Assembly (NCBI GenBank): GCA_035528115.1
Contig: DATKZF010000003.1
Span: 487,089-551,088 of the forward strand
DNA: 64,000 nucleotides
Reading direction: 5' to 3'
DNA from: Candidatus Bipolaricaulota bacterium
GTDB taxonomy: Bacteria; Patescibacteriota; Patescibacteriia; UBA11705; DATKZF01
The notes beneath the pieces were generated by a model that did no database searches, was not told the origin of the DNA, and saw only the letters and a program-made list of their open reading frames with translations. Position numbers and translations under genes: made by a program. This document shows positions 16,954 to 55,810 of this stretch, in pieces; position 1 is the stretch's first letter, and the number at the start of each line of letters is the position of its first letter.

Positions 16954-16957
16954 TTAC

Positions 16958-17124: not shown

Positions 17125-17144
17125 CAAATCACTAATTTCATTAA

Positions 17145-18375: not shown

Positions 18376-18874
18376 GGTTACAAATTACAAATGAAGACGA
18401 ATAACACAAATGGTTACAAATATGCCTAATGATAAGGTCATATATCCGGAATTGAGTTATCAAATAGTCGGAATTTTGTTCGACGTGCACAATGAGATTG
18501 GAGGCAAAGTGAGCGAGAAAGTTATTTCGCGGGCAATCGCGTCGGATTTGGATAACTGTCATCTCAAGTATGAAAAAGAAATACAGGTCCCCGTTTTCTA
18601 CAAAGGAAAGCAGATTGGATATTATTTTCTTGATTTCTTAATAGAGGGGAAAATTGTGCTGGAAATAAAAAAGGGCTTTCGATTCGCAAATAAAGATTTT
18701 GATCAAATACATGATTATTTGCAGTCAACCGGTTTGAAATTGGGCATCTTGGCGATATTTTCGGACACAAAAGTAAAATTCAGAAGAATACTAAACGAGT
18801 ATTAATTTTTATTAAACAATGAATACAAATTTGTATTCATTTGTAACATTTGTACGGATTTGTAATTTGTAACC
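18376..18874. mobile_element. Mini-cassette bounded by perfect 16-bp inverted repeats GGTTACAAATTACAAA (18376-18391 and 18859-18874) carrying one GxxExxY-family gene
   Basis: Left inverted repeat GGTTACAAATTACAAA; right TTTGTAATTTGTAACC is its exact reverse complement. An 18-bp palindrome GAATACAAATTTGTATTC sits at the 3' side of the cargo. Confidence 0.6.
18410..18805 (+). CDS. GxxExxY-family small protein (TIGR04256-like, putative PD-(D/E)XK fold)
   Basis: Family-typical core VPVFYKGKQIG...DFLIEGKIVLEIK...QIHDYLQSTGLKLGILAIF and an N-terminal G..SE.V helix. Confidence 0.6.
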   Translation: MVTNMPNDKVIYPELSYQIVGILFDVHNEIGGKVSEKVISRAIASDLDNCHLKYEKEIQVPVFYKGKQIGYYFLDFLIEGKIVLEIKKGFRFANKDFDQIHDYLQSTGLKLGILAIFSDTKVKFRRILNEY

Positions 18875-21336: not shown

Positions 21337-21394
21337 GGAACCGCCATGCAGAGACGCGTCATGGCGCGTCTCTGCATGGCGGTTCTTTGTTTTC
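21337..21394 (+). terminator. Long perfect hairpin GGAACCGCCATGCAGAGACGCG-tcatgg-CGCGTCTCTGCATGGCGGTTC plus T-rich tail (AGAGACGCG family)
   Basis: 22-bp stem; a second short hairpin AAAAACGGTTTTT/AAAAACCGTTTTT precedes it at 21307-21333. Confidence 0.75.
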
Positions 21395-26379: not shown

Positions 26380-26604
26380 CATGGATCACATATCATGGAG
26401 CACATAGCACGTATCATGCCTGCCCGCCGTAGCTTAAGAGCGAAGGCGGGGATCACCTATCATGAAACAAAAGAACATGAGACGGAAAAACAGAGAAACA
26501 AGGCCGACGCTGTTGTCATCTCGACCGAAGCGGAGAGATCTTTTCCTAATTCTTCGGAATAGATTTCTCCATCCCCAATTTCTAATTTCCGGTTTCTTAT
26601 TACC
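26380..26604. repeat. Dispersed intergenic repeat, copy A, directly upstream of the GT4 gene at 26624
   Basis: Shares a roughly 110-nt core with 46322-46547 (CATGAAAC..AAGGCCGACGCTGTTGTCATCTCGACC..GAAGCGGAGAGATCTTTTCCTAATTCTTCGGAATAGATTTCTCC..TCCGGTTTC..ATTACC) and an ATCATGGATCAC head that also appears inverted at 40565-40612. Confidence 0.65.
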
Positions 26605-32289: not shown

Positions 32290-32326
32290 CGCAAAATAAA
32301 TTCCAAGTTCCAAATATCAAATGTAT

Positions 32327-32359
32327 TAAAATAGCGGAAAGCTTGTCTTTTCGCTATTT
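32327..32359 (+). terminator. ATAGCGGAAAG-cttgtc-TTTTCGCTAT hairpin plus T run (AGCGGAAAG family)
   Basis: Imperfect stem located after the 30277-32289 gene. Confidence 0.5.
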
Positions 32360-32591
32360 TATGATAATTGTTTTTTTACTTCCAATTTGGTTTGCCTGCG
32401 ATTGTATGTTTTTTTGCTGGCTATCTTTTTCGTCGGCCGATGCAAAACGCCGGATTTTTTGCGGGTTTTTCGGCGAAGGCTTTTGATTTTTTCTCCGGGA
32501 GAATCGTAAATTTTAACAATGATTTTCTTTTTCATAAAATTTTTTGTTTTGTTGAATTAATTATATCATGAATTTATTTTCGGCGCGCGGG

Positions 32592-32644
32592 CGTCCGGGG
32601 GCGGCCGCCCTCGGACGTAGAGACGCGCCATGGCGCGTCTCTAC
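32592..32644. repeat. Two consecutive GC-rich hairpins: CGTCCG..CGGACG and GTAGAGACGCGCC-atgg-CGCGTCTCTAC (AGAGACGCG family)
   Basis: The second hairpin is nearly identical to those at 21352 and 51584. Confidence 0.6.
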
Positions 32645-33752
32645 AACGCGCGTTCGCGCGTTCGTCCGCGCGCCAAATCAAAAAGCGGCCATGAAAGCCG
32701 CTTTTAGATTAGCATCAACCTGCCATTTTACCCGATCAAGATGCTGTTGCCAAAAAACTGGATAGTTGGAGAGAGATTTAAAGAACATCTATCTCGTTTT
32801 TGGCAAACAGTATGCTGACAGGGTAAATCGCTCGCGAATCCTACCCGAATTTAACTATACGATGTATGACTTATTACTTGTAACTTCAAATCGTTAATTA
32901 AATTCGGGTAGGCGGGAAAAACTAGTTTGTTTTTCCCACCGGCTTCACCACTTACGGTAGGTTACACCGCCTTGCTTTGCTGGCGAGGCTGACGAGGGCC
33001 GGACACACGTATGCCCGGGAGCGGTTATTAACGGATCTCTCCGTCACTCCAGAGAAAGGCTACACCCCAAGGATTACTCCCCGAAAGGTTCACCAGCCCG
33101 TTGGAGCCAACCGCTGCGCAAAGTCCCCCGGATGGACAATCAGCGCTGTCGCGCCTTCTTCACGTCGGGCGCCCATCACGGTCATACCCAACGCTGCCTC
33201 ATTATGAGCATCTCTACTCCATCTCCTTGTAGATTGCCCTTGCCATGGAACCGGTCTTCGAAATTAGTGAAGACCGTCCCCCAAGTTTTTTATCTTGTTA
33301 CACAACTCCTATGGCCGGCCGTTTTTCAAATAGGTCCGGCTTGTTCGAAGCGTTGCAAGGGGTGGGGACTCTTCAGGGAGAGATCCCCTGTGGCGGATGA
33401 GCGATGGACCCTTTTTGGCGTTGGAGCTGAAAGCTCCTGGGTCCTGCGGTCGCGTGTCGCGCGACGCTTCATCCGCCGTTTCCGGTCCGGCCATCCTGAT
33501 GGCCGGCTAGCCTCGTTCTGGGCGCACCCGGCTAGCTGGGCGCGTTCTTTATGAGCACTGATACTCTCCTTTCTCGGTGATAAAGAATGAGCGCGCGCTC
33601 CCTTAGCCTATTTGGCCGAAGGAGCCGCCGTACGCGCTCAGCCAGCCTGAGTCTCCAAGTTAATCTTCGAAAATCAGGTTGGCCGGAGACGTCCTAGGTG
33701 AGGTTGTCTCCGATGGGGGAAAGAACGAGGAGGGGTGGGGTGGGGGAAAGGG

Positions 33753-34100
33753 TTACTTCTTCTTGCTCTTCTTGCCCTTCTCCTTACGAGCCTGGGACTG
33801 CAGCCCGGTCTGGCCCGACTCGGAGCCCTTGCTCTGGAGTCGGATCTCGCGATCGTTGTCGGCCCGCGCCTTGCGCCGCGCCTCCTGGTCCGCCGGCCGT
33901 CCCTTGCGGACGCCGCCGGGGCGGTTGAATTCCATTTTTCGGCCCCCGCTCCAACTGCCCCAGGGGGAGCTGACGGAGGATCGTCGGTTGCACTCCTCGA
34001 TGCGCTTGAGCACGAGCGGTGGTGGCTCCACGGAGACGAGCACGCATTTCGTCTGGGTCGGGGTGGGATCGGATTCTTTCGTGATCGCAACCATGTTCAT
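33753..34100 (-). CDS. Hypothetical small basic protein (115 aa) with a lysine-rich C-terminus inside a GC-rich islet
   Basis: Strong AAGGAGGG RBS 5 nt upstream of ATG and a TTGACA -35-like element; the sequence is not low-complexity except for the KEKGKKSKKK tail. Confidence 0.35.
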   Translation of the reverse strand: MNMVAITKESDPTPTQTKCVLVSVEPPPLVLKRIEECNRRSSVSSPWGSWSGGRKMEFNRPGGVRKGRPADQEARRKARADNDREIRLQSKGSESGQTGLQSQARKEKGKKSKKK

Positions 34101-34939
34101 TCCCTCCTTGGGGTGGGGTGGTTGTGTGTCCCTGAAACTACGATGTAGATGAGCGTGCTAAAGAAAGATTTGAAGGGTCATATAAATTAATAATTACCCT
34201 TGTCTTTTTTAGCTTTCTCTCTCCTCTACATCCCGGTTTCAGCGACTCTTTAAGGAAAAAAATAGACAGAAAAGATTCTGCCAGATCGCGAATCACAGCT
34301 TCGCGATAGCCTTGAACGAAAATTATGCTTTGTTCAGGGCTTGGCTGACTCTCTCCCAAAAGTCCGCTTGGTTTTCAAAGTTTCATTGTGACTTGGTATT
34401 ATATCATAATTTAATGAATTTGTCAAGCGTGGACGTAAAAAGGATTCATATTTTATCTAAAATTACATAAATCAAGAAGGATTATTAAGAGATGGCTTGT
34501 TTCGTCTCGCGCATTTGGCGCTTCGACGACCCACTTTTTGACGCCAAAAAGTGGGCAACCTGCCTGCCGGCAGGCAGGAAAGCGCTGGGGGAAAATGATT
34601 CGTAAAGCGACAATTTAATGTTAACAATCTCGCGACGGCTCAGCATTTTCCCCCAGACCCCCGGTGCTATCCGCGCGTGATTCGTCGATATTAGGACTTT
34701 TGCCTTTTATCTGCCTCATTGTTTTACCAAGGTTCGATTTTAACCGGCCAAAGAGGCAGGTAGCCGGCTACCTGCTTTTGAGAAATTAAGGAACGCTGAG
34801 GAGACCCCTGACGAATGCAAGGGGACGACGAAGCGAACCGGACGTTAGTCCATAACCTGCCCCCCGACCTTTAAAATAAGCAATAAAAAGGGAGGGGGGA
34901 CAAGGGGGGAGGGTTAAAATTATGAGGTTTCATGGCATA

Positions 34940-34975
34940 AAAAAAGCCGCCCCATTCGGGGCGGCTTGAAATTGA
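34940..34975. terminator. Bidirectional hairpin AAGCCGCCCC-attc-GGGGCGGCTT flanked by A and T runs
   Basis: Lies directly 3' of the minus-strand sugar transferase gene. Confidence 0.65.
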
Positions 34976-34984
34976 CGTTTATTA

Positions 34985-36412
34985 TTAAATGGCCGATAAA
35001 CCTTTTAGCACCACCCATGGCGTTTTCAAGAAAATCCACAAATCAAGGCGATATGACCAATTTTCAATATAATAGATGTCCATTTTTGCTTCTTCGTCAA
35101 AGGGCAGATCCGATCGTCCGCTGATTTGAGCCAGACCCGTTAATCCGGGTTTTATATCCAAGGTTCGAGTTTGCTCCTGAGAATAATTGGCCACTTCTCG
35201 GGGCTGATGAGGACGCGGGCCGACCAGGCTCATGTTGCCGATCAGCACATTGAAAAATTGCGGCAATTCGTCAATGCTGAACTTTCTGATGAATTTGCCG
35301 ACCTTGGTCACTCGCGGATCTTTTTTGATTTTATACAACGCGCCCCGCGACGCCCGTTGTTCCTTGATCAATTTATTTTCATACTCAAGCGCCTTTTTTC
35401 CGGCCTTGGTATTTTCATCCGTGCTGAATTCATTGTACATGGATCTGAATTTGTAAACGAAAAATTTATTGCCGTATTGTCCGACCCTTTCATTTTTGTA
35501 AATTATCGGGCCGCGCGACGTGATTTTAATGGCCAGAGCTGTCAACAATAAAATGGGGGAAAGCAGTAGCAATAAAATGAATGAGAAAACAATGTCCGCG
35601 GTTCGCTTAATGATTTTTCTCCAGCCGTCGAGCGGAGTTTTTTTGATTTCAATCACGGGAATGCCTCCGATCATGTGGGATTCGATGTTCGTGGACCTGG
35701 CCTCAAAAGGGCCTGCCGCGTATTTGAAAACGATGTGATTGTATTTGGCGAAATTCAAAAGTTTGATGGAATCTTTTCTGGAAATGTTGGGATCGGATTG
35801 AATGATTTCGTCAATGAAATATTTTTTGTGCCATTCGACCAACTTGTCGAAGGCCGTCGAATCGATTTCTTTGATTTGTCCGATGATTTTGAGTCCGAGC
35901 GAAGATTCCTTGTTTATCGTGTCTTTGATCGTCTGGGTGTACGCGTTATAGCCTACCAGCACGACTTTGTTAGTGCCCCAGCCCGTTTTGTACAAATGAT
36001 TTTGAATCATTCTGATGATAAATCTGCCCAGCACGATATAGACAATGCTCAATATCCAGGCGGCCAGAACAATGAATCTGGATTCAAAGAGTTCTCGCAC
36101 GAAAAACATGTAAATGATAATGGCGGCCATGCCCGTGGAACAAGCCATGAAAATGCGCGCCAATTCATCGGTCAAGGTCGGTTTTTTGAAATTGTAAAGT
36201 CTGCTTATAAAGAAGAAAAGAATCCAGACGACGGAGACGACGAGCGCCGCGATAATGTATTTGTCAAAAGGCAAATCAAAAATTACCGGTCTTATCTCGG
36301 TAATTTCTTGCTTGAATCTTAAAAAATACGCGGTAATGGCGGCCAGCAACAATAAAATATAGTCTGTCGCCAACCTAATAAGGACGAAAATTAATTCGGA
36401 TTTTTTTATCAT
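34985..36412 (-). CDS. Polyprenyl-phosphate glycosyl-1-phosphate transferase (WbaP/CpsE-type bacterial sugar transferase)
   Basis: Four N-terminal TM helices; C-terminal catalytic domain with KFRSM and DELPQFFNVLIGNMSLVGPRP motifs. Confidence 0.85.
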   Translation of the reverse strand: MIKKSELIFVLIRLATDYILLLLAAITAYFLRFKQEITEIRPVIFDLPFDKYIIAALVVSVVWILFFFISRLYNFKKPTLTDELARIFMACSTGMAAIIIYMFFVRELFESRFIVLAAWILSIVYIVLGRFIIRMIQNHLYKTGWGTNKVVLVGYNAYTQTIKDTINKESSLGLKIIGQIKEIDSTAFDKLVEWHKKYFIDEIIQSDPNISRKDSIKLLNFAKYNHIVFKYAAGPFEARSTNIESHMIGGIPVIEIKKTPLDGWRKIIKRTADIVFSFILLLLLSPILLLTALAIKITSRGPIIYKNERVGQYGNKFFVYKFRSMYNEFSTDENTKAGKKALEYENKLIKEQRASRGALYKIKKDPRVTKVGKFIRKFSIDELPQFFNVLIGNMSLVGPRPHQPREVANYSQEQTRTLDIKPGLTGLAQISGRSDLPFDEEAKMDIYYIENWSYRLDLWIFLKTPWVVLKGLSAI

Positions 36413-37321
36413 AGCATGGGTTTTATTGGAAGATAAATGACTACTATCATTATGCCAGTTTTATCGGTGTCTGGCAATGTCATTTGGCTTCCAATGATCT
36501 AAATAAGCCTGTAAGCCGAATTCTGTGGCCTCCGCCAAGAATTCGAACGGCAGATTTTAGAACCTGTCGGCCGAAGCCTTGGCGAAGGTCGATGACCATC
36601 TATCTAGGTCCGACATTGCTGCCGGACTCAAGCGAGCTACCAAATTTGCTCTTGCACCTGATAGGGTTTACCACGCTTGGACGTTGCCGTCCAAGGAGAG
36701 AAGTATGATTTAAATGGTCACGTGAACAATTTAACTTTTTTTCTTCTCACTTTTCACCTTTGGCCGCGAAGCGGCCACCCTGAGTGAGGAGCAGTGCGAC
36801 GAATCGAAGGGTGTAGATGTATCCTTCGACTCGCTATGCTCGCTCAGGATAGTCGCTTCGCGACTAGTATAGTCTCTGTGGCACTGGCCGTCGGCCGAGT
36901 TTCTTTCGACCCTATCTCAGAAATAATTTTCTATTCAATTGGCGAATTTAGGCTGCAAATTGTTCAAAACTCGTCACCATAATAATCATATTATGCTTCT
37001 TCGTCTTTCACAATTTTCGCTCTAAATTCGCTCAATCTCATTACGAAACTTATGTCTGAGATAGGGTCTTGTTATCTCGGCATCGCCCGGACGTTATCCG
37101 GTATCATTTTTTATGGTGTTCGGACTTTCCTCCCTCCTTCGCTCCTTGCTGCGCTCGAGCTTCGAAGGGCAAGCCCTCTTAGTTTGCGAGGGGGGTTGCC
37201 GTTCTTGGCTTCAAACAAAGCAAGGAGCGAAGAAGAGCGGTCATCCGGCTTATTCAGATCAATGAAATTATAGCAAAAAAATGATGAAATGTCAATGGTA
37301 ATTTAAAAACCGCCAGCATGG

Positions 37322-40390: not shown

Positions 40391-40394
40391 ATTA

Positions 40395-40612
40395 CGAATT
40401 ATTACTTCTAATAAGCTAGCCTTGGTTTTAGGTTTTGTGAATCGTTACGAATGATTACAAATACGTTTATGTTACGAATTACAATATTCTATTTAGCTTT
40501 CAGGTTATTTGTTACGAATTACAATATTCTCAGGCATAAAGCTATAGGTGAATGTAATTTGGAAAAATGCTCCATGATACGTGATCCATGATCTATGGTA
40601 ACGTCTCGTAAT
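40395..40612. repeat. Intergenic array of GTTACGAAT(G)ATTACAA repeat units, plus an inverted copy of the 42-nt repeat ACAAATAACCTGAAAGCTAAATAGAATATTGTAATTCGTAAC and an inverted partial ATCATGGATCAC head
   Basis: The GTTACGAATTACAAT motif occurs twice in tandem (40493, 40523). The 42-nt stretch at 40480-40535 is the reverse complement, with 2 mismatches, of 17080-17124. The stretch 40565-40612 is the reverse complement of the head of the repeat at 26380. Confidence 0.6.
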
Positions 40613-42384: not shown

Positions 42385-42561
42385 AATGTTTTTTATGGAA
42401 GTTAAATAATTACAAATAATTAAATCCGTTAGGACAAGCTTGATTTTGGTTCTAAGAATTAATTACAAATAGTTACGAACAAACAAATTTATAAATTAGG
42501 AAAGTAATAAGTAATTGAAAAGGTGGTAGCTGTTTAGGTGGCTATCTAAAAAGCTAAGAAG

Positions 42562-44421
42562 CTACTGGTTTGAAGATTTCCATTTCCTCTTCGTGTTGAC
42601 GTACCATTCGCTGATTTTAGCGAAGCGATGCGCCGGAGTGATAATTTGATGAGTGGTCAGCCCGTTGATTTTTTTGCTTACCGGATAAGTGTAGGTGGTA
42701 TTGAACAAGAAAATCGCCGGAGCTTCTTCCGTAAGTATTTTTTGGAATTCAATATAATTTGTTTCCCGCTCTTTCGGATCCGTTACCGATCTGGCGTCTT
42801 CCAGGAATTTGTCGGCTTTCGCGTTTTTAAAGCAAGACAAGTTAAGTCCCGGATGCTTGCATTGGTCCGAATGCCAAAACGGAAACGGATCGGGGTCTTG
42901 CCCCAGAATTTCTCCGTAAAGCAGCATTTGATATGAGCGATCTTTGATGACGTTTTTTTGAATTTCATTGACGTCCAGAATATTGAGGTTTACTTTGACG
43001 CCGATTTGTTGCCAATACTGTTGAATATGCTTGGAGATTTTTTCGAAATCGGTTTGATTGGGCGCGGTGAGCGTAAATTCAAGGTATTCAGCGCCTTTTT
43101 TTCTGACTTGAAACGGATACGCTTGCTCGGAATCCTCGTTTTGATAATCGGTCAGCGCCCAACCCGCGTCATCCAGGATTTTTTTAGCTTGCTCGATGTT
43201 GAAGTCGTATTTTTTGATATCTTCGGTATAGCCGATATAGCCGGGCAGAATCGGGCTGTCAATAACAACGGCTGAGCCGGCGTAAACCGCTTCGGCCAGT
43301 TGCGGCTTGTCAATGGCATAGGCCAGCGCCTGTCTGATGTTTTTTTCTTTCAACGTTTTGTTGTCTCCGCCGACGTTTATGAAAATGGAAACATATTGCG
43401 GCAATGCGAACTCATTGAAATTAAGCCCTCGATTATTGAAAATTTCGGATTTGTATTTTTCGGGCAAGTAGCTGATGCCTTCGATTTTTTTGTTGTTGAT
43501 CGCGTCAATGGCGGAATTGAAATCCGGATAAAATTTAAAAGTTAATTTATCGATCAAAGGCGAAGTCCCATGGTACAAGTCATTTCTGATCAAGCTGACG
43601 CTTTTGAGCGAGCCGTTGGTTTCTTTGGTCAAAGATTTTATTTTGTAAGGCCCGCTGCCCACCGCCTTCAAATTCGCCTCGGCCAAATTGGTGTTGCCCG
43701 CGGGAATGTCCAGCCAGACATGTTCGGGCAAGATGCCGAAAGTCAGGGATTCCGCAAAGGGCGCGAAAGGATTTTCCAGCTTGAATTTTATGGTGGAGTC
43801 ATCTATTTTTTCCGTGGTGACGCCGGCAAAGTTGAAAATCAGAGGGCTTTTCGTTTGTGGATCCTTGATTCTTTCAATGGTGAAAATCACGTCGTCGGCC
43901 GTGAGTTTTTCGCGGTCATCCCAATATAAGTCAGGTTTTAATTTAAGAGTATATTCTTTTTGATCTTCGCTGATTGTCATGTTTTCTGCCAAGTCATTGG
44001 CCAGGACCTGTCCGGGTTCGAATTTCAAAAGTCCGGAAAATAGTAAAAAAGAAAGATCCAGGTCGACATCGTTTGTCTGCGCGAGAATCGGGTTGATGTA
44101 TTTCGGCGCTCCCACCAATCCTTCCGTGTATTCGCCTCCGGGAGCCGCGACCAGTTCTGAATGAGTCATATAAACGTTGCCGGCCAAAGTCAGCCCGCAA
44201 ATCGTCAAAACGCCCAGAAGAATTTTTATCGCCATTGATTCTTTTTTGGAAAAAAACTTGGAGATGTATTTCAATTGTTTTAAAGACGGAACCGCTTTTG
44301 ATTTATTCAAATCTTGCACCAGCTTTTGATCGATCTGGGTTTGATATTGCGCTTGTTTCAGCCGTTCCCGGCGTTTTTTATCGTTTTTACCACGATAAAA
44401 TTTGTGAAAAAAAACATTCAC
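42562..44421 (-). CDS. ABC transporter substrate-binding protein, family 5 (peptide/nickel, OppA/DppA-like), membrane-anchored
   Basis: N-terminal TM anchor, then an SBP family-5 fold pattern (about 560 aa extracellular). Confidence 0.7.
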   Translation of the reverse strand: MNVFFHKFYRGKNDKKRRERLKQAQYQTQIDQKLVQDLNKSKAVPSLKQLKYISKFFSKKESMAIKILLGVLTICGLTLAGNVYMTHSELVAAPGGEYTEGLVGAPKYINPILAQTNDVDLDLSFLLFSGLLKFEPGQVLANDLAENMTISEDQKEYTLKLKPDLYWDDREKLTADDVIFTIERIKDPQTKSPLIFNFAGVTTEKIDDSTIKFKLENPFAPFAESLTFGILPEHVWLDIPAGNTNLAEANLKAVGSGPYKIKSLTKETNGSLKSVSLIRNDLYHGTSPLIDKLTFKFYPDFNSAIDAINNKKIEGISYLPEKYKSEIFNNRGLNFNEFALPQYVSIFINVGGDNKTLKEKNIRQALAYAIDKPQLAEAVYAGSAVVIDSPILPGYIGYTEDIKKYDFNIEQAKKILDDAGWALTDYQNEDSEQAYPFQVRKKGAEYLEFTLTAPNQTDFEKISKHIQQYWQQIGVKVNLNILDVNEIQKNVIKDRSYQMLLYGEILGQDPDPFPFWHSDQCKHPGLNLSCFKNAKADKFLEDARSVTDPKERETNYIEFQKILTEEAPAIFLFNTTYTYPVSKKINGLTTHQIITPAHRFAKISEWYVNTKRKWKSSNQ

Positions 44422-44755: not shown

Positions 44756-45439
44756 ATGAATACCGAACAAAAATTGCGTGACAGACAGTGGTTTAAGTTG
44801 GCCATGATTGTATTGGGCGTTTTTTTAGTCATCATGCTTGTCGAATTGAAATTGCATAATCCTTTCGAAAAAATCAAATTGATAAATCAATCGTCGAATG
44901 AGGAAATTCTCGACATGACGAGCGTAGTTACTTCAAGCGATCCTTTCCTGGGCAATGAACAAGCCAAAATTCAAATAGTCGAATTCGGAGATTTCGCTTG
45001 TCCGTATTGCCGGCAGGCCGCGCCGATCATGCGATCATTGATGGCCGAGTATCAGGATAAGGTTTTTTTTCAATTCAGGGATTATCCGGTGGTGACGACC
45101 GAGTCGATGTGGCTGGCCATGGCCGCGGATTGCGCTGACGAGCAGAATAAATTTTGGGCTTTCTCGGACAAGCTTTTTCAAAATCAAGGAGAGGTCAGTG
45201 AAGAAACCATTTATAATTTGGCGAAAAGCGTAGGCTTAGCCACGGACAGATTTAAAAATTGTTTGACAACACAGAAATATAAAAGCGAGGTGGTCGAAGA
45301 TTTCAATGACGGAGAAGCTTTGAAAATTGAAGGCACGCCCACTTTTTTCATTAACGGCAGAAAAGTCAAAGGCGTCCCGGACGCCGAAATTTGGAGAAGT
45401 CTTTTGGATGAGCTGATCTCCTTATATGAAGAAAATTAA
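44756..45439 (+). CDS. DsbA-family thiol:disulfide oxidoreductase, membrane-anchored
   Basis: N-terminal TM helix and a thioredoxin fold with CPYC active site. Confidence 0.75.
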   Translation: MNTEQKLRDRQWFKLAMIVLGVFLVIMLVELKLHNPFEKIKLINQSSNEEILDMTSVVTSSDPFLGNEQAKIQIVEFGDFACPYCRQAAPIMRSLMAEYQDKVFFQFRDYPVVTTESMWLAMAADCADEQNKFWAFSDKLFQNQGEVSEETIYNLAKSVGLATDRFKNCLTTQKYKSEVVEDFNDGEALKIEGTPTFFINGRKVKGVPDAEIWRSLLDELISLYEEN

Positions 45440-45986
45440 TATGAGAGAAATAAGAATACACGGTCGAGGCGGACAAGGCACGGTGACCGCGGCGGAACTT
45501 TTGGCCATGGCGATTTTTCATGACGGCAAATATTCCCAAGCATTTCCATTTTTTGGCGTGGAGCGCCGAGGCGCGCCCGTTGAAGCTTACGTTAGAATAG
45601 ATGATAAGCCGATCAGATTGCGCAGTCAGGTTTATGCCCCCTGTTTTTTAATAATTATGGATATGAGTTTGGCCGAATTGCCGCAAGTGTTTCATGGAGT
45701 GAAAAAAGACGCTATGGTTTTGGTCAACAGCGAAAAAAAATTGAAATTAAAAAATTTCAAAGTTTTTAATGTGCCGGCCACGTCCATTGCCTTGGAAGCC
45801 ATGGGCAATCCGCTTTTGATAAACACTTCTTTAATGGCCGCTTTCGCCGCCATCACCGGTTTGGTCAAATTCGATTCTTTGGTCGAAGCGGTCAAAGACA
45901 GGCTCGCGCATAAAGGCGAAGAGGTGATTAAAAAAAATATCATTGCCATGAAGGTGGCGAAGAAATATATTGAGGAGAGCTTGTAG
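45426..45986 (+). CDS. porG: Pyruvate/2-oxoacid:ferredoxin oxidoreductase gamma subunit
   Basis: IRIHGRGGQGTVTAAELLAMA...FGVERRGAPV. Confidence 0.8.
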   Translation: MKKINMREIRIHGRGGQGTVTAAELLAMAIFHDGKYSQAFPFFGVERRGAPVEAYVRIDDKPIRLRSQVYAPCFLIIMDMSLAELPQVFHGVKKDAMVLVNSEKKLKLKNFKVFNVPATSIALEAMGNPLLINTSLMAAFAAITGLVKFDSLVEAVKDRLAHKGEEVIKKNIIAMKVAKKYIEESL

Positions 45987-46040
45987 CTGGTAGGGTGTAG
46001 CTGGTTAGGTGGCTACCTAATAACCTAATAAGCTACAAGC
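45979..46040. repeat. Imperfect palindromic element GCTTGTAGC...TTAGGTGGCTACCTAA...GCTACAAGC filling the porG-porD intergenic region (GCTTGTAGC/TAGGTGGC family)
   Basis: It starts inside the last codons of porG. Related copies are at 42519-42567 and, split around a cargo gene, at 47741-47760 and 48136-48157. Confidence 0.65.
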
Positions 46041-46047
46041 TAATATT

Positions 46048-46326
46048 ATGAAGAACAAATTATCCACAAAACCCGGCACAACCAAATTGAACAATACGGG
46101 CGATTGGCGGACTTATAAGCCGGTGGTTGATCATAAGCGTTGTATCGCCTGCGGCGTTTGTTCCCGCGTTTGTCCGGAAGGGTGCATTTTTTCAGTGGGA
46201 GAAAAAATGCTTCAAAAAGGCGGTAAAGTTTTTTTCGAACACGATTTGGACTATTGCAAGGGCTGCGGTATTTGCGCGGAAGAGTGTCCGGTCAAGTGCA
46301 TTGAGATGGTTCGGGATAAATCATGA
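46048..46326 (+). CDS. porD: 2-oxoacid:ferredoxin oxidoreductase delta subunit (2x[4Fe-4S] ferredoxin)
   Basis: CIACGVCSRVCP and CKGCGICAEECP cluster motifs. Confidence 0.8.
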   Translation: MKNKLSTKPGTTKLNNTGDWRTYKPVVDHKRCIACGVCSRVCPEGCIFSVGEKMLQKGGKVFFEHDLDYCKGCGICAEECPVKCIEMVRDKS

Positions 46327-46547
46327 ATCATGGATCATGAAACGAAAGAATATGAGACAGAAAGACAGAGAAACAAGGCCGACGCTGTTGTCATCTCGAC
46401 CTCTCGACCTTGCTCGGGGCAGGCCGAAGCGGAGAGATCTTTTCCTAATTCTTCGGAATAGATTTCTCCAACCCCAATTTTTCCGCCAAAGGCGGATCCG
46501 CCTCGGGCGGATAATTTCCGGTTTCCGGTTTCCGGTTTCTCATTACC
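46322..46547. repeat. Dispersed intergenic repeat, copy B (with insertions), upstream of porA
   Basis: Same core as 26380-26604; it carries an extra (TTTCCGG)x3 tract. Confidence 0.65.
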
Positions 46548-46569
46548 ATACATCACATTTGTAACTATT

Positions 46570-46588
46570 CCTGCCTGCGGCAGGCAGG
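46570..46588. repeat. Palindrome CCTGCCTGC-g-GCAGGCAGG (second copy, CCTGCCTGCCGGCAGGCAGG, at 34559-34578)
   Basis: Read directly; the two copies share an identical 9-bp arm. Confidence 0.6.
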
Positions 46589-46640
46589 CGTAAAAAAATA
46601 AGGCAAAGGCAAGCTAATTAGTTTTAAGAATTCGTAACGT

Positions 46641-47741
46641 ATGAAAAAATGCATCGAAGGCTCCGAGGCCATAGCCGAAACAATCAAACTCTGCCGGCCG
46701 GAAGTGGTGGCTGTTTTTCCGATTACGCCGCAGACTCATATAATAGAGCATTTGGCTCAATATAAAGCGGACGGAGACGCTGATTATGAATATATCAGAG
46801 CGGAGAGCGAGTTTTCCGCGGCTTCCATTATTTTGGGCGCGGCCGCCATGGGCTCCCGCGTTTACACGGCTTCCAGTTCGCAAGGACTGCTTTTGATGAC
46901 TGAGGTGATTTACAATATCGCGGGCATGCGTTTACCCGTGGTCATGACCGCGGCCAACAGAGCCATTTCGGCGCCGCTGAACATTTGGAATGATCAACAA
47001 GATGTCATGCCGTTTCGGGACGCGGGTTGGCTGATGCTTTTCGCGGAAGACAATCAGGAAGCGGTTGATTTTCATTTGATGGCTTATAAAATAGCGGAAA
47101 GATTTTCTTTGCCGGCCATGGTTTGCGTGGACGGCTTCGTATTAACGCATACCTTTGAAACCGTTGATTTGCCTTCAAGCGCTGAGGTTAAAAAATTTTT
47201 GCCGCGATTTTCTCCGAAAAAAAATTCGGCTTTGGACGTGATTCGGCCGGTAAGTTTGGGGTGTTTTGCCACGCCGGACGATTATCAGGAAATCAGACTG
47301 GAATTGCACGAAGATTTATTGAAAACAAAAGAAGCTTTTTTATCGGAAGCCGTAAAATTCAAACAGATTTTCGGCCGACAATTGAATGTCTGTCAGTATT
47401 ACGGCCCGGCAAACGCGAAGACCGTGATTGTTTCCATGGGTTCGGTTTTGGGCACCATAAAAGAAGCGGTTGATGAGCTGAATAAAAAAAGCGGCCAAGT
47501 CGGCGTTTTGAAAATTACCATGTTTCGGCCTTTCCCGGAAAAAGAAATTTTTGATATTTTAAAAAACAGAAAAAAAGTCATTGTTTTGGACAAGTCGATT
47601 TCTCTCGGTCGCGGCGGAATTTTATTCAATGAAATCAAACAATGTTTGTCAGGATCAAAGGTTGAAGTGAAGGGAGTCGTGGAGGGATTGGGAGGCAGAG
47701 ATGTGACCATGGGATTTGTTTCTGAGCTTGTAGCTTTTTAG
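46641..47741 (+). CDS. porA: 2-oxoacid:ferredoxin oxidoreductase alpha subunit
   Basis: N-terminal GSEAIAE...CRPEVVAVFPITPQT and the domain order of POR alpha. Confidence 0.85.
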   Translation: MKKCIEGSEAIAETIKLCRPEVVAVFPITPQTHIIEHLAQYKADGDADYEYIRAESEFSAASIILGAAAMGSRVYTASSSQGLLLMTEVIYNIAGMRLPVVMTAANRAISAPLNIWNDQQDVMPFRDAGWLMLFAEDNQEAVDFHLMAYKIAERFSLPAMVCVDGFVLTHTFETVDLPSSAEVKKFLPRFSPKKNSALDVIRPVSLGCFATPDDYQEIRLELHEDLLKTKEAFLSEAVKFKQIFGRQLNVCQYYGPANAKTVIVSMGSVLGTIKEAVDELNKKSGQVGVLKITMFRPFPEKEIFDILKNRKKVIVLDKSISLGRGGILFNEIKQCLSGSKVEVKGVVEGLGGRDVTMGFVSELVAF

Positions 47742-48157
47742 CTTGTAGGTTGTAGGTGGCAAAATATGGAAAAACAAGTAATAAACAGTTATAAGGATTT
47801 GATTGTTTGGCAGAAAGCCATGGACTTGGTGGTTGCCGTTTATAAGCTTACGGATAAGTTCCCAAGAGAAGAAGCGTACGGGCTTACTTCTCAGATGCGA
47901 CGCAGCTCCATTTCCATTCCTTCAAATATTGCGGAAGGAAGAAGGCGCGGAACAAGAAGAGAGTACAGGCACTTCTTAATTGTCGCGTATTCATCGGGAG
48001 CTGAGCTTGAAACTCAACTTGAAATCGCGAAAAGATTAAATTTTTCGGAAGATATCGTTTATAATGTCGCTGCTGATTTATTAGAGGAGATTATGAAAAT
48101 ATTAAATTCAATGACGTCGTCGCTTTATGTCTAAAGCCACCTAATCAGCTAACAAGC
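47741..48157. mobile_element. Cassette bounded by imperfect inverted repeats GCTTGTAGGTTGTAGGTGGC (left) and GCCACCTAATCAGCTAACAAGC (right) carrying a four-helix-bundle gene, inserted between porA and porB
   Basis: The outer 6 bp (GCTTGT) and inner 8 bp (TAGGTGGC) of the two arms are perfect reverse complements. An empty abutting-palindrome version is at 45979-46040. Confidence 0.55.
47766..48134 (+). CDS. Four-helix-bundle protein (TIGR02436, the 23S rRNA intervening sequence protein family)
   Basis: YKDLIVWQKAMDLVVAVYKLTDKFPREEAYGLTSQMRRSSISIPSNIAEG...GAELETQL matches the family consensus closely. Confidence 0.7.
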   Translation: MEKQVINSYKDLIVWQKAMDLVVAVYKLTDKFPREEAYGLTSQMRRSSISIPSNIAEGRRRGTRREYRHFLIVAYSSGAELETQLEIAKRLNFSEDIVYNVAADLLEEIMKILNSMTSSLYV

Positions 48158-48162
48158 TCATT

Positions 48163-50613
48163 ATGAAAATAAAAAAAACAACTCTCGCCATATTATTACT
48201 GGTCATCATGTCCGCGATGTTTGGATTTTCGGAGTTGGCCAAAGCCGCCGACTTGCGCGAAGCCATTCCGAATTTGAAAATTTCCATTCCCACTTTGCAG
48301 GAAGGGTTCCAACAGCCGGTGGTGATCAGCAAATGTCCCAAGGACAAACCCAATTGCGCGCCAAACGAGAAGCAGGCGTTCGCTTCGATTCCGTGGATCG
48401 CGCAGTATGTCAGCGCCATTTACAAATACGCGCTCGGTCTGGCCGCGATAATGGCCACGATTTCCGTGATGATCGGCGGCGTCTTGTACCTGACATCGGC
48501 AGGCAATCCTCAGCGCATCGGCACGGCTAAAAACATGATTATCGGCGCCATCTCGGGCATGGCCATTATTATTTTTTCTTATGTCTTTTTAAATTTGATC
48601 AATCCTGAACTGGTGAAATTAAGCCCGATCGAAATACAAACCGTGCTCGAAGAGCAGCTGGCCACGGGTCAAAGTTGCAGCAGTTTGGGTGGACAATTTT
48701 TAGTGCAGGTCGGCGCTGAAACGACCGATCCCAGTAACGCTTCCAATCACAGTAAATATTTGTGCGGCTCTTATTATCCGGTGTCCGTGGCCGCGGGCGC
48801 GGCCGGTTCGGCCGGAGGATCATGTCTCGGAGATTTTTGTCCGACCGGCAGTTGCGTTGAATTTGAAGGCAATACCCAGTGCGTTAACGCGCTTTTTTAC
48901 GGAACCATCAAGAGAACGGGTTTGGGCAGAATTATTGATAAAATAACCTTGATGGGAATAACTTCGGATAATGAAGTGGTGACGATTAAAGAATATCCGA
49001 TCAGCGGCACGGATTCATATATTATTCCGTTGACCGGAGATATCGACGCCAAGGTCAGAAACGCGCAAAAATTTTTCTTTTTGATTGAAATCAATGATAC
49101 CGACAATTGGGCGTATTGGGCGAAATTCCAAGCCACCAAAAATCAAAGCTTAATGGATTTGATCGGAGACAGAATTGCCGGAGCCTTTACCCCTACATGG
49201 GATGATGACGTTCCCGCTGTCAGAAGCTATAAAGATTCCAATAAGGCGATATTGGGCACGGCTCTGCCCATTCCCGTAGAACTTAGTCAGGCTCTGGGCA
49301 AAGCTTGCGAGACTTGCAGGGTTTTTGAAAGAGATCCGGAGACCTGGCAGCACTGGACGGCAAAGCCGTTTTGCAAGTTTTGGACGGCCGAAGAAGTGCT
49401 GGGCATCATTGGGGCAAACGGCGGACTGGGCATCAGAGTGAATTTCGACACGGATGATTTCCCTGAAGATTATACGAAGGTTGAAGCGGATGAATTGGCT
49501 ATTTACAACACCATGCCTTGCGGGCCGATCTATGGCTGCGATTTGAAATACGAAGAAAATAGCGCATATACGCAGTATGATCCGAAAAAAACCAAAGCCG
49601 AATGCGAAGCAGCCGCGAAATCGTCAGCCGGTCAGACTGTCGGCGGCGGTTCTTGTCAAATAAACGAGGTCTGGACCACCAAAAATGATCCTGACGGCAA
49701 TCCATTGGTTTGCCTGCCGGCGGGCGGTGTGGGTCAATATGAATGGTCCGGCGGCAAGGAAGGAGAGGCCATTGATAACTCTAACCTGGTTAATCCAAAA
49801 GATGTGCAACATTTTGGCGTGGAATTGCATAGTCGATATGCGAGTCTTGGCACTCAATTACCGACCGTGTCTTGCGTTGACGGCACCAAACCGACTTGGT
49901 TGGACGCGCAAGGAGCTTGGGACGCGGTGGGTTGCGAAAAAACTACGGGGGATGTCTATTATTGTTCGGGCAGATGTTTGGGACCGGATAAACAGGTTTC
50001 GTCTACGCCGGGTTCAAAATGCATTGGCGGTGTTTCTTGCTTCCCGTTCAACGGTCAAAAATTGATTTGCAATATGTCATCGCAGACTTGTCAATTCGGC
50101 GTCTGGGGAGATTATTGCGCCAGCGATATTCACTGCGACACTAGTTCCGGCTTTACTTGCAATATGGATCTGAAGGCTTGCGTTAAGAACGGCGCCGGGC
50201 AGCAGTGGCAAGCATGTTCGAGTGATGCTGATTGCGGCGGTTCATTGAAATGCTTATATCCTGCTTATATTGATTCGGATAATGGCGGTTGCGGCACATT
50301 TCCGGAAAGTTTTCCTGAAGCCGCGCGAGGTTCATGGGAAGACGTCAATTATGGTAGCAGCACTAATAATAGAAAAATTTGTTGGGATCCGGCGAAAAAT
50401 AATGACGTAAATGGCCTTTGCGATTGTGAAGCGAATCTTCAATGCGGGTCGGACAATGAGAAATGGTCGGATGCGGAGTTATGTAATACGGACGGTTTGA
50501 ATTATTGCTCTTCGGTTATCGAGGGCGCTAGGTGCGATACGGACAAAGACACGCCGCTGGCCGGAGGATATATTTGCGATGAAAGAAATTATCTAATTAA
50601 AAAAATTCAGTAA
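48163..50613 (+). CDS. Large cysteine-rich extracellular protein with signal peptide and an N-terminal two-helix hydrophobic hairpin resembling a VirB2/TrbC-type pilin module (inference)
   Basis: Signal peptide MKIKKTTLAILLLVIMSAMFG. The hairpin LGLAAIMATISVMIGGVLYLTSAGNPQRIGTAKNMIIGAISGMAIIIFSYVFL is followed by about 650 aa with more than 40 Cys, including repeated C-x-S-D-x-x-C units. The gene sits between porA and porB. Confidence 0.55.
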   Translation: MKIKKTTLAILLLVIMSAMFGFSELAKAADLREAIPNLKISIPTLQEGFQQPVVISKCPKDKPNCAPNEKQAFASIPWIAQYVSAIYKYALGLAAIMATISVMIGGVLYLTSAGNPQRIGTAKNMIIGAISGMAIIIFSYVFLNLINPELVKLSPIEIQTVLEEQLATGQSCSSLGGQFLVQVGAETTDPSNASNHSKYLCGSYYPVSVAAGAAGSAGGSCLGDFCPTGSCVEFEGNTQCVNALFYGTIKRTGLGRIIDKITLMGITSDNEVVTIKEYPISGTDSYIIPLTGDIDAKVRNAQKFFFLIEINDTDNWAYWAKFQATKNQSLMDLIGDRIAGAFTPTWDDDVPAVRSYKDSNKAILGTALPIPVELSQALGKACETCRVFERDPETWQHWTAKPFCKFWTAEEVLGIIGANGGLGIRVNFDTDDFPEDYTKVEADELAIYNTMPCGPIYGCDLKYEENSAYTQYDPKKTKAECEAAAKSSAGQTVGGGSCQINEVWTTKNDPDGNPLVCLPAGGVGQYEWSGGKEGEAIDNSNLVNPKDVQHFGVELHSRYASLGTQLPTVSCVDGTKPTWLDAQGAWDAVGCEKTTGDVYYCSGRCLGPDKQVSSTPGSKCIGGVSCFPFNGQKLICNMSSQTCQFGVWGDYCASDIHCDTSSGFTCNMDLKACVKNGAGQQWQACSSDADCGGSLKCLYPAYIDSDNGGCGTFPESFPEAARGSWEDVNYGSSTNNRKICWDPAKNNDVNGLCDCEANLQCGSDNEKWSDAELCNTDGLNYCSSVIEGARCDTDKDTPLAGGYICDERNYLIKKIQ

Positions 50614-50615
50614 TT

Positions 50616-51530
50616 ATGACAGCCAATAATTCATACCATTCTCCATTTCAACACCTGATCAATCCCGGCCACACGGCTTGCGCGGGTTGCGGTTTGATGG
50701 TGGCCATGATTAATGTTCTCGACGCGCTCGGGCCGAACACCATTGTGGTCGGAGCCACGGGTTGCAGCGAAGTGACCACCAGCAAATATCCGCAAAGCGC
50801 ATTTAAGGTGCCCTGGATTCATTCGGTTTTCGAAAATCCGGCGGCCGTGGCCACGGGCATTGAGGCTGTTTTGAAAAAAAGAGGTCAAGATAAAGACATT
50901 AATGTGTTGGCTTGGGGAGGGGATGGCGCCATTTTTGATATTGGCATCGGTTTTATTTCCGCCGCATGGGAGAGGCGGGAAAATTTTTTGCTGGTGTGCC
51001 TCGACAATGAGGCATACATGAACACGGGCATTCAGTCCAGCGGCGCCACGCCGCTTGACGCTTATACCATGACCACGCCGTCCGGCGAAAAATCCTGCGG
51101 CAATGCGAATTTGAAAAAAGACATGATCAGGATCGCTTTGGCGCATGACGTAGCGTACGCGGCCACGGCCACCATCGGCGATTTGACCGATTTGACCAAT
51201 AAAGTTAAAAAAGCGGCGAAAATAAAAGGGCCGAAATACATTCAGGTTTTAACGACCTGCATTCCCGGCTGGAACGTGGAGCCGAAATTGTCGATCAATT
51301 TGGCCAGGCTGGCTCAGCAGACGGGCATTTATCCGGTTCTCGAATATGAATACGGTAAATTAACCAATGTGAAAAAAGTGGCCAAGGATCGGCCGAGAGT
51401 GGAAGAATATTTGAAGCCGCAGGGCAGGTTCAAGCATTTGTTTTCCAAAAGCGGCAAGTGCCAGAGCGGCATTGAAGCGATTCAAACGTTGGCGGATGAG
51501 AATGTGGAAAAGTACGGGTTGTTGAAATAA
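50616..51530 (+). CDS. porB: 2-oxoacid:ferredoxin oxidoreductase beta subunit (TPP-binding)
   Basis: CAGCGLMVA..., GCSEVTT and GDG TPP-binding patterns; starts 3 nt after the preceding gene. Confidence 0.85.
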   Translation: MTANNSYHSPFQHLINPGHTACAGCGLMVAMINVLDALGPNTIVVGATGCSEVTTSKYPQSAFKVPWIHSVFENPAAVATGIEAVLKKRGQDKDINVLAWGGDGAIFDIGIGFISAAWERRENFLLVCLDNEAYMNTGIQSSGATPLDAYTMTTPSGEKSCGNANLKKDMIRIALAHDVAYAATATIGDLTDLTNKVKKAAKIKGPKYIQVLTTCIPGWNVEPKLSINLARLAQQTGIYPVLEYEYGKLTNVKKVAKDRPRVEEYLKPQGRFKHLFSKSGKCQSGIEAIQTLADENVEKYGLLK

Positions 51531-51552: not shown

Positions 51553-51613
51553 AAAACGACGAATGAAAATTCGTCGTTTTATTGTAGAGGCGCGCCGCGG
51601 CGCGTCTCTACAA
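51553..51613 (+). terminator. Two hairpins after porB: AAAACGACGAAT-gaaa-ATTCGTCGTTTT and GTAGAGGCGCGCC-gc-GGCGCGTCTCTAC (AGAGACGCG family)
   Basis: Both are perfect or near-perfect inverted repeats. Confidence 0.65.
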
Positions 51614-51752
51614 TGGCGGCATCGCCGCCCGCGGCCGCCTTTTGACGCCTTTCAAAAATTGTGTTAAACTGATTCGCAAGGTGTTTAACTTCCCGACGAG
51701 AAAAAAAACGAAAAATTTCAAAAAACTTTTCGCCTCACTCGTCGCGTTTTCT

Positions 51753-54629: not shown

Positions 54630-54783
54630 TTAATGATTATTCGCAGCCATTTGTGGCAAACCCATAAACCAAAAACCAAGGCAAGCCATTCAGACGCTAT
54701 GATTTGTAATGTGTTTGTAATAAATATGACGCTAAGGCTAGCTAAGTAGCCGCAATAATTCGTAACGTGTTTGTAACGTATTT

Positions 54784-55337: not shown

Positions 55338-55658
55338 TTATTTGATTTCTCTAAGTCTTTTATGAGTGGTTCTAAGATGCCCAAGTTTCGCCCGCCTGAC
55401 TTTGTATTCTTTGGCTGTCTCTATTTTTTCAATAACCGGTGAATGCAAGGGGAAGATTTTTTCAACTCCGATGCCGTCCGAGACTTTTCTGACCGTGATC
55501 GTGGCTCCGATTTCAGAGCCATGTTTTCTGGCCAAAACCAAGCCTTCAAAAATCTGGACTCTTTCTTTTTCTTCTCCTTTGGGTGTTAACTCTTTGATTC
55601 TTTGATGCACCGCGACCACTTTGCCGGGCTGAACTTCAGGGTAAATATCTTTTTTCAT
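55338..55658 (-). CDS. rplS: 50S ribosomal protein L19
   Basis: 106 aa; IFEGLVLARKHGSEIGATITVRKVSDGIGVEKIFPLHSP matches L19. Confidence 0.9.
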   Translation of the reverse strand: MKKDIYPEVQPGKVVAVHQRIKELTPKGEEKERVQIFEGLVLARKHGSEIGATITVRKVSDGIGVEKIFPLHSPVIEKIETAKEYKVRRAKLGHLRTTHKRLREIK

Positions 55659-55810
55659 AGGGTTACAAATTACGAATGTTTTGTAAAAAGGTTACCAATG
55701 GTTACGAATTTACAAATAATTTTTAGTTTATTATAAATTTTATCTCGTATGCTAAAGCCTGTACATCTTGTAACTAACAGATATGATTTTAGCTTTTTGG
55801 AGAGAAATTG

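Follow-up and report, generated by a model that had tools for sequence, protein, structure and literature searches.

Within a 64,000-nt stretch of genomic DNA from Candidatus Bipolaricaulota bacterium (GenBank assembly GCA_035528115.1, contig DATKZF010000003.1, positions 487,089 to 551,088; hereafter the window), a gene for a 122-aa four-helix-bundle (4HB) protein of the PF05635/TIGR02436 family (47766-48134, plus strand) was found at the junction between porA (46641-47741) and p816 (48163-50613), the latter encoding an 816-aa protein without clear family. The gene is flanked by two arms on the plus strand, and gene and arms together are referred to below as the 4HB cassette. The left arm (47724-47760) reads GAGCTTGTAGCTTTTTAGCTTGTAGGTTGTAGGTGGC and is built of approximately 7-nt TAG words (TAGCTTT, TAGCTTG, TAGGTTG and TAGGTGG); the right arm (48136-48159) reads GCCACCTAATCAGCTAACAAGCTC and is made of reverse-complement words (GCCACCTA..AGCTAACAAGCTC). 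The cargo fits tightly, with 5 nt between the left arm and the 4HB ATG and 1 nt between the 4HB stop codon and the right arm, which in turn ends 3 nt short of the p816 ATG (48163). An AGGTGG motif resembling a Shine-Dalgarno (SD) sequence lies at the inner end of the left arm, approximately 8 nt 5' of the 4HB ATG. As a sequence-only reading of this DNA had suggested, the left arm begins inside porA, the last six codons and TAG stop codon (47739-47741) of which fall within it, and the gene, which that reading placed between halves at about 47741-48157, is enclosed by arms that can pair. In both the minimum free energy and the centroid folds of positions 47715-48170 the arms paired across the 4HB gene (z = -3.1; none of 100 shuffles was as good).

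The arms are arrays of approximately 7-nt words (TAGCTxx/TAGGTxx) and their reverse complements and do not form one rigid palindrome; tandem intergenic 7-nt units were reported by Tandem Repeats Finder (periods 7, 8 and 14) at 47739-47757 and also at 45982-46035. The sequence TAGGTGGC occurred five times relative to 0.48 expected (five were reached in none of 100 shuffles), and four of the five occurrences lie inside the cassette and two gene-less hairpins (45978-46041 and approximately 42522-42568). The window also forms part of a 604-kb metagenomic contig (JGI 3300031565, Ga0307379_10000002). Two loci from independent assemblies (L001 from JGI and L002 from Logan; L-numbers denote retrieved loci) were 100% identical to the window, and the exact 4HB protein of the window was present on eight contigs, so the cassette sequence is not an assembly artefact. 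Complementary termini enclosing an S23p-type open reading frame (ORF), as in the intervening sequences (IVSs) of 23S rRNA, were found here in the form of a long-range arm stem around a PF05635 ORF. The location differs: the gene lies between porA and a protein gene and so is not in helix 9, 25 or 45 of 23S rRNA, and an Rfam scan of the window gave RNase P RNA as its sole match. Upstream of porA, the operon holds a DsbA-like gene (44756-45439), porG (gamma; 45426-45986), porD (46048-46326) and a 314-nt porD/porA spacer (46327-46640), and p816 is followed by porB (50616-51530).

The 4HB protein scored 129.4 bits against Pfam PF05635 (cut-off 33.8; profile positions 1-106 of 106), 124.6 bits against TIGR02436 (cut-off 24) and 137.3 bits against NF008911 (cut-off 137). 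The PF05635/TIGR02436 family, which is named for a rare location in 23S rRNA, comprised 22,918 clusters at 50% identity in a single-sequence search. In a phmmer search of the PDB the protein matched 2GSC (XCC0516; E = 4e-23) and 2RLD (E = 4e-4) and is, judged by these matches, homologous to solved pentameric four-helix-bundle structures; 2GSC is a homopentamer (PMC4990558), and the window protein is presumably a pentamer by homology to it. Its predicted isoelectric point was 7.9, and the median among 79 sampled members was 9.33. Matches to the Avd protein of diversity-generating retroelements (DGRs) were also obtained (PHROG 'Avd protein of DGR', E = 4e-7; Pfam bAvd, E = 8e-7). A DGR Avd identity was rejected, since the scores against NF033474 (24.9 relative to a cut-off of 80) and PF22296 (29.9 relative to 40) were both below threshold; no reverse-transcriptase domain was found in the neighbours porA and p816, and a template/variable repeat pair was not noticed. 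Matches were limited to PF05635 and bAvd, which excluded a cargo of the type of REP-associated tyrosine transposases (RAYTs; Y1, IS200/IS605-like), and none of the nuclease domains expected of a homing endonuclease gene (LAGLIDADG, GIY-YIG, HNH, PD-(D/E)XK) was found in the 4HB protein. PADLOC, which covers known anti-phage defence systems, gave no match for 4HB, for the GxxExxY protein described below or for p816. A possible link to the HEPN RNase superfamily was dropped, as a survey of HEPN proteins did not mention the PF05635 family.

Gene-less hairpins and the por operons of relatives

Two unsplit hairpins of TAGCT/TAGGT words are present near the cassette. Hairpin A (45978-46041, plus strand), between porG and porD, folds at -29 kcal/mol (z = -3.35), and the porG stop codon TAG (45984-45986) forms its first word. 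Hairpin C (42522-42568) is weaker (-16 kcal/mol, z = -2.1) and lies 3' of a minus-strand gene for a peptide-binding protein (SBP), the stop codon of which (TAG, 42562-42564, minus strand) is in the first word. The stop codons of porG, porA and SBP thus each sit in the first word of their own hairpin or arm. Both unsplit copies had been described in that reading, and both were recovered, the one at approximately 42522-42568 with less support. The accompanying claim, that the cassette carries the halves of the same palindrome, held for the family of words at the two sites and not for their exact form: the right half of hairpin A reads GGCTACCTAA, not GCCACCTA, and the arms are word arrays. These imperfect palindromes were missed by an ungapped hairpin scan, which gave only terminator-like hairpins and another palindrome family, and a regular-expression census of at least three TAGs spaced 6-8 nt apart was not above chance (4 found, 5.2 expected in shuffles).

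Hairpins placed exactly at gene junctions could be ordinary operon punctuation (terminators, attenuators or mRNA-stabilising stems), with 4HB as a normal resident gene, and stable 3' hairpins can indeed stabilise upstream mRNA segments. Rho-independent termination, which the sequence-only reading had named as a possible refutation, did not account for them. The stems have no T tail (the bases 3' of them are AATATTATG and ATTATG), a terminator scan made no call at 42522-42568, at 45978-46041 or over the cassette arms, and the terminator-like hairpins of this genome are of a different kind (GC stems flanked by A/T).

Orthologous por operons were compared, a check that had been proposed. Por loci were retrieved by PorA (80 loci from species-level genomes), and four closer relatives were added by protein search. 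The relatives of the window were Patescibacteria (Buchananbacteria, Falkowbacteria and Parcubacteria), and the gene order SBP-dsbA-porG-porD-porA-(p816)-porB-uvrA was kept in approximately 60 Patescibacteria loci. At the porA/p816 junction, the insert was absent from L165 (PorA 72% identical), which has a 9-nt spacer, and from L003 (70%), which has a 28-nt spacer. L163 (72%) carries a 101-nt gene-less hairpin of TTACGGA/TCCGTAA words (-41 kcal/mol) there. The closest relative, L166 (76%), holds a GxxExxY (PDDEXK_3) gene between TTGATT/AATCAA arms (gene at 1998-2390 of Logan SRR29278616_48637) where the window holds the 4HB gene between TAGCT/TAGGT words, so that two cassette families share one junction in sister lineages. 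Between porG and porD, a gene-less TAGCT-word hairpin was found in the window, in L166 and in the distant L037, and was lacking in L163 (10 nt), L165 (2 nt) and L003 (70 nt). From this series, the 4HB gene and the hairpins are additions to an ancestrally compact operon, and gene plus arms constitute an insertion relative to close relatives.

Further 4HB genes were located at other por junctions, namely porD/porA (L014, L044 and L034), porG/porD (L020) and porA/porB (L058), and GxxExxY genes at dsbA/porG (L045), porG/porD (L060) and porD/porA (L029); por operons also hold a DUF559 gene (L009) and a GIY-YIG gene (L044). These operons have been colonised repeatedly, at differing junctions. Taken as sequence comparisons, the bare junctions of L165, L003 and L163 (in L163 at porG/porD), the shifting or missing 4HB gene and the recurrence of the same design in unrelated contexts such as cas6/cas4 and the ribonucleotide reductase (RNR) genes (see below) already contradict operon punctuation, which is scarcely credible as an explanation. 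Two side observations concern these loci. The p816 protein has a weak T4SS_pilin-like N-terminal match alone; in about half of the Patescibacteria por operons a homologue is found at this position, which makes p816 a conserved, if odd, interruption of the operon. In L163, porG ends AGC TTG TAA (5578-5586) with no hairpin after it, and in the window porG ends AGC TTG TAG as the first hairpin word; the L163 sequence may have arisen by chance, may be what an excision left behind, or may reflect insertion-site microhomology with the element word AGCTTGTAGCT.

The same junctions bear on the proposal that the unsplit palindrome is an empty site, i.e. an insertion hotspot in which a heptamer-word palindrome pre-exists and subsequently receives at its centre, through recombination or the repair of a break, a copy of a 4HB gene, either by itself or with short homologous ends. 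The tight cargo boundaries (5 nt on the ATG side, 1 nt on the stop side), the unsplit same-word hairpins within 6 kb of the filled one and the gene-less hairpin that L163 carries at the porA junction, where the window and L166 have a gene, are in line with such a history. The orthologous junctions that are truly empty (L165 and L003 at porA/p816; L163, L165 and L003 at porG/porD) contain no palindrome, however, and the words of the L163 hairpin (TTACGGA) differ from those of the window arms. The empty-site claim is not supported by these junctions, although entry of genes into pre-existing hairpins may be a secondary route, and the unsplit copies are regarded as elements themselves, either gene-less derivatives or non-autonomous copies.

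Inverted heptamer arrays around 4HB genes and sister cargo families

A metagenome scan with the window 4HB protein yielded 80 loci (45-66% identity, GC 30-64%), 74 of them with usable flanks; none of the 80 genes was in an rRNA gene. Flank complementarity was measured by a local match/mismatch alignment of the 80 nt upstream with the reverse complement of the 80 nt downstream, combined with shuffles; this replaced RNAduplex energy, which proved GC-confounded because loci of Actinobacteria dominated. Scores of at least 28 were obtained for 33/74 4HB genes and z values of at least 4 for 43/74, and in 31 of the 33 high scorers the arms pair only across the gene. Placement of the gene merely between two complete palindromes held for L085 (and, by eye, for L087) and was rejected for those 31 and for the window, which are truly split. 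Among 13 por cassettes, nine exceeded the 99th percentile of 1064 control genes (Mann-Whitney p = 4e-8).

A 7-nt period was dominant in 23/33 upstream and 22/33 downstream flanks, with tandem arrays such as (TAGGGAC)n ... (CCCTAAT)n, (GTGGTTA)n ... (CACTAAT)n and (GGTAACA)n ... (CCTGTTA)n, the lengths of which differ widely among loci. The arrays are polar, with TAG words 5' and CTA words 3' in 33/73 genes and the opposite in 3/73, so that a ribosome on either strand reaches stop words ahead of the centre. The upstream neighbour was co-directional in 57/65 cases, with a median of 53 nt from its stop codon to the 4HB ATG. That stop codon was TAG in 34/54 cases relative to 52/194 control ORFs (p = 2e-6), and a periodic run of stops began with it in 25/54 relative to 20/194 (p = 2e-8). 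As the 7-nt period places a stop in every frame, the left array ends the upstream ORF in whichever frame that ORF arrives.

Comparable arrays were found on annotated plasmids of cultured cyanobacteria. In Nostoc edaphicum, (TAGGGAG)n/(CTCCCTA)n arrays surround a 4HB gene between the two RNR genes, and similar arrays are present in Calothrix brevissima and Stanieria. On Anabaena sp. 90 pANA02 (L171, 1195-1563) and Pseudanabaena galeata pPg_01 (L175, 1201-1560), a 4HB gene lies between cas6 and cas4 of a type I-D CRISPR-Cas operon, with arrays of the above kind in Anabaena sp. 90 and the Pseudanabaena galeata variant being unusual in having direct (AAAGCTA/AAAGCCA)n arrays on both flanks. The '23S rRNA IVP' is listed among CRISPR-linked proteins in PMC10910872, and insertion of 4HB genes between cas6 and cas4 may explain that link.

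The content of flank words correlated with the similarity of the 4HB proteins (Mantel test; none of 999 permutations reached the observed value). Four or more TAGCT/TAGGT words were present in 9/16 members of the clade of the window protein (54-66% identity), relative to 3/62 others (p = 5e-9), and the hosts of this clade span a GC content of 0.32-0.54 yet share the words; the word sequence is thus specific to the 4HB clade. Since neutral DNA would be randomised at such protein divergence, the words are either clade-constrained or recently co-transferred, and their covariation with the clade across unrelated hosts implies that gene and arms travel or are selected together. The earlier suggestion of a tiny element, of which the two halves are the ends and a single gene the cargo, is supported. 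For the hotspot, the covariation would be unexpected if genes entered any host palindrome. The left arm of hairpin A matches that of a 4HB cassette on an unrelated metagenome contig (L086) at 30/35 positions (86%), which fits derivation of the hairpin from a cassette. In L085, a 4HB cassette lies 1.4 kb from a gene-less hairpin that shares its words, and unsplit hairpins outnumber split ones in the census below (35 relative to 11), both as a hotspot would predict; taken together with the palindrome-free empty junctions, we nevertheless regard a pre-existing hotspot as unlikely.

The design was not confined to 4HB. An unbiased census of non-coding inverted repeats in the window and approximately 70 Patescibacteria loci gave 67 pairs. 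Spacers of up to 30 nt (unsplit) were found in 35 pairs, comprising terminators, word hairpins and a TGTCATTCC...GGAATCCAG type linked to GIY-YIG genes; 16 pairs had spacers of 31-150 nt, 11 of 151-700 nt and 5 of over 700 nt. The 11 pairs split by 151-700 nt enclosed five 4HB genes, three GxxExxY genes, one DUF559 gene, one GIY-YIG gene and, in one case, porG between two like hairpins; hence 10/11 enclose a member of one of four families. The three sister cargo families carry nuclease domains (PDDEXK_3 in the case of GxxExxY, DUF559 and GIY-YIG), and a GxxExxY search of viral_contigs gave no match. In the window, the second cassette (18376-18874, plus strand) has a GxxExxY/PDDEXK_3 ORF at 18410-18805 (likely start ATG 18422) and inverted TTACAAA/TTTGTAA words as arms (18376-18424 and 18826-18874). 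A second inverted-repeat family carrying GxxExxY, as previously noted from the sequence, was therefore present, and DUF559 and GIY-YIG genes follow the same pattern. In the genomes covered, these three small nuclease families thus share a design that is general for the 4HB family.

In many bacteria no long simple repeat is more over-represented than heptamers, for which slippage has been proposed as the cause (see PMC4679880 and PMC4692102). The arrays could accordingly be a by-product at the DNA level: replication-slippage arrays next to stop codons, duplicated in inverted form by template switching, between which small genes survive, the arms serving neither the RNA nor the protein. The wide variation in array length between loci and the lack of a significant sense-strand bias in stem stability (see below) would be expected of such a process. 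It leaves unexplained why the same four families occupy 10/11 of the mid-sized split repeats, why words are conserved in a 4HB clade of 54-66% identity across hosts, why TAG-first polarity prevails (33 relative to 3) and why relatives without the gene lack the arms as well, and it is judged quite improbable, more so than a hotspot.

Other repeats were observed in the window. Gene-less copies or nested palindromes of TTACGAA/TTACAAA words, the family that brackets the GxxExxY gene at 18376-18874, were located at 16953-17145, 40391-40570, 46593-46637, 54666-54768 and 55646-55677. The porD/porA spacer (46327-46640) contains a repeat 91-98% identical to a copy 20 kb away (26452-26581), bounded by AATCATG words overlapping the porD stop codon and by TTTCCGG words. 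Inside it is a TGTCATCTCGACC...GGAGAGATC hairpin similar to the ones found beside GIY-YIG genes in L059, L031 and L046, and the repeat has the look of a third type of cassette in gene-less form. Three intergenic copies were located of GTAGAGACGCGCCATGGCGCGTCTCTAC, a perfect GC-rich palindrome (21338-21385, 32617-32644 and 51581-51614) that is distinct from the word hairpins. The RNase P RNA (RF00010, 142.8 bits; 36496-37181, minus strand) measures 686 nt relative to a 367-nt model, with insertions of 186 nt near model position 93 and of approximately 80, 36 and 50 nt elsewhere; cyanobacterial RNase P RNAs carry heptamer insertions (short tandemly repeated repetitive sequences, STRR). Finally, the region 32290-34985 consists of ORF-poor gaps of 842, 124 and 832 nt around two small ORFs, with no Rfam match at the gathering threshold.

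A cassette model for the 4HB gene

The favoured reading, to which we assign a probability of approximately 0.6, is that of a small insertion cassette, with neither promoter nor transposase, which carries the 4HB gene as its cargo, is built like the ORF-containing IVSs of 23S rRNA and resides in a protein-coding operon junction. The cassette is promoterless, inserted, without a recombinase and usually co-directional with the upstream gene, and its arms can pair. In order, the anatomy is host gene, array of approximately 7-nt TAG words, SD-like motif and 4HB ORF, reverse-complement words and next host gene. The cassette would be transcribed by read-through from the host operon, and in the transcript the arms would form an interrupted stem of approximately 22-26 bp that, given the position of the SD-like AGGTGG, may sequester the 4HB ribosome-binding site. 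By analogy with the stems of rRNA IVSs, RNase III could cut this stem, which would free a hairpin-capped 4HB mRNA and part the host cistrons. The mostly basic 4HB proteins may recognise their own clade-specific words, as the covariation suggests; the DGR relative Avd binds reverse transcriptase and RNA. With such recognition, 4HB would be the factor by which the element maintains or spreads itself. Hairpins without a gene would be decayed or non-autonomous copies, and recombination or template switching at the arrays are candidate routes of movement.

Several observations weigh against this reading or limit it. The only direct evidence of mobility is presence or absence among species 24-30% diverged in PorA. 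Insertion polymorphism at the strain level was not found: the nearest non-identical PorA is 76% identical and L001 and L002 are 100% identical to the window, so an exact junction or target duplication is not definable. Correspondingly, no target-site duplication was visible beside the arms of the porG/porD hairpin or of the 4HB cassette, the arm boundaries are fuzzy, and no recombinase was present in the 4HB cassette. The window arms are among the weaker examples by DNA-only score (23, z = 4.6), which 37/1064 control genes (3.5%) match. At the threshold used, 38/73 metagenomic 4HB genes lacked, within 100 nt, both pairing across the gene and any flank that pairs with itself, and 4/10 cyanobacterial examples were clearly flanked by inverted repeats (score of at least 30). 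The 80 loci sample one part of PF05635, since they were picked by similarity to one protein. At the RNA level, the transcribed strand gives the less stable fold of hairpin C, and sense stems were not significantly more stable than antisense stems (20/33; p = 0.15), so that selection could act on DNA and not on RNA. Cleavage by RNase III is suggested by analogy, and recognition of words by the protein is suggested by covariation alone, to which co-inheritance after horizontal transfer would likewise lead.

A wider version of the cassette reading is more tentative, and we lean against it, giving it little more weight than the hotspot. It holds that PF05635 proteins bind their own flanking 7-nt words in a sequence-specific manner and, together with inverted arrays, constitute a widespread class of transposase-less mobile elements, with gene-bearing 'autonomous' cassettes and gene-less non-autonomous hairpins, in the manner of REPIN/RAYT systems. 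The rRNA IVSs would then be a special case that landed in rRNA, and much of the heptamer excess (STRR and the GGGAATC and TAACTGA types) would be a footprint of such elements.

Comparison with known systems

Recurrence of the gene-in-split-hairpin design around PF05635 in very different bacteria ties a large family of unknown function to the puzzle of heptamer repeats, which to our knowledge have been catalogued since 1990 without explanation. In the part of the family sampled, the typical PF05635 member is framed here as the cargo of an inverted heptamer-array cassette in operons. Through such cassettes host genes acquire altered 3' ends and stop codons and operons are interrupted (por, cas6-cas4 and the RNR genes), and the cassettes may yield false 'associations' in guilt-by-association screens, the CRISPR-linked 23S rRNA IVP being an example.

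REPIN/RAYT systems have a single-copy gene flanked by inverted short palindromic repeats and gene-less copies dispersed intergenically, as here. The cassette differs in encoding a four-helix bundle and not a Y1 transposase, in having tandem 7-nt words in place of a fixed repetitive extragenic palindrome (REP), and in showing no evidence of catalysis. MITEs (miniature transposable elements with inverted repeats), for example the RNA-processed Correia elements of Neisseria, are short, intergenic and co-transcribed with inverted ends, and the gene-less hairpins resemble them; the 4HB cassette can be likened to a mobile insertion cassette (MIC), a passenger gene between inverted ends without a transposase. 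Unlike MITEs and MICs, it has no IS-type terminal repeats, a target-site duplication was not seen and no cognate transposase is known. With DGR Avd the 4HB protein shares a homologous four-helix-bundle fold; it differs in its sub-cut-off scores and in its por/p816 neighbours, which lack a reverse transcriptase.

Bacterial heptamer repeats are likewise tandem intergenic 7-nt units that often overlap or abut stop and start codons. Arrays have been described for Xanthomonas (GGGAATC) and Nostoc (GGGGA(T/C)T) (PMC4692102) and for Beggiatoaceae (TAACTGA; PMC4679880), in addition to the cyanobacterial STRR; Xanthomonas has 70-75 convergent (inverted) array pairs (PMC4692102), and forward TAACTGA arrays place stops in all three frames (PMC4679880). 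In the present case, by contrast, the arrays are the arms of a gene cassette. Neither PMC4692102 nor PMC4679880 mentions S23, 23S or four-helix proteins or ties its arrays to PF05635, and a full-text literature search found no paper linking heptamer arrays to PF05635/TIGR02436.

In rRNA genes of the candidate phyla radiation (CPR), non-intron insertions encode 23S_rRNA_IVP or GIY-YIG proteins (PMC11270868). These are alike in phylum-level group, in both small-protein families, in being non-intron and in occupying several scattered sites, and differ in lying in 16S/23S rRNA genes; that paper describes neither inverted arrays at their flanks nor insertion at operon junctions. Closest are the ORF-containing 23S rRNA IVSs of Leptospira and Coxiella burnetii. 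The Coxiella IVS measures 428-444 nt, has a 28-bp terminal stem and an S23p ORF, and is cut by RNase III (PMC4990558). Both it and the window cassette, of approximately 436 nt, have PF05635 cargo and a stem of complementary termini around the ORF, lack a recombinase, are sporadic and are suspected of horizontal transfer (PMC4990558). The IVSs lie in helix 9, 25 or 45, in contrast to the protein-coding operon junction found here; excision by RNase III is a feature of the IVSs and is proposed here by analogy. In the window the left arm provides the stop codon of the upstream gene, and the arms of the cassettes analysed here are arrays of 7-nt stop-codon words. What is new is therefore an IVS-type cassette in mRNA operons, with inverted heptamer stop-word arrays as its arms, for which the rRNA IVS is the closest known counterpart.

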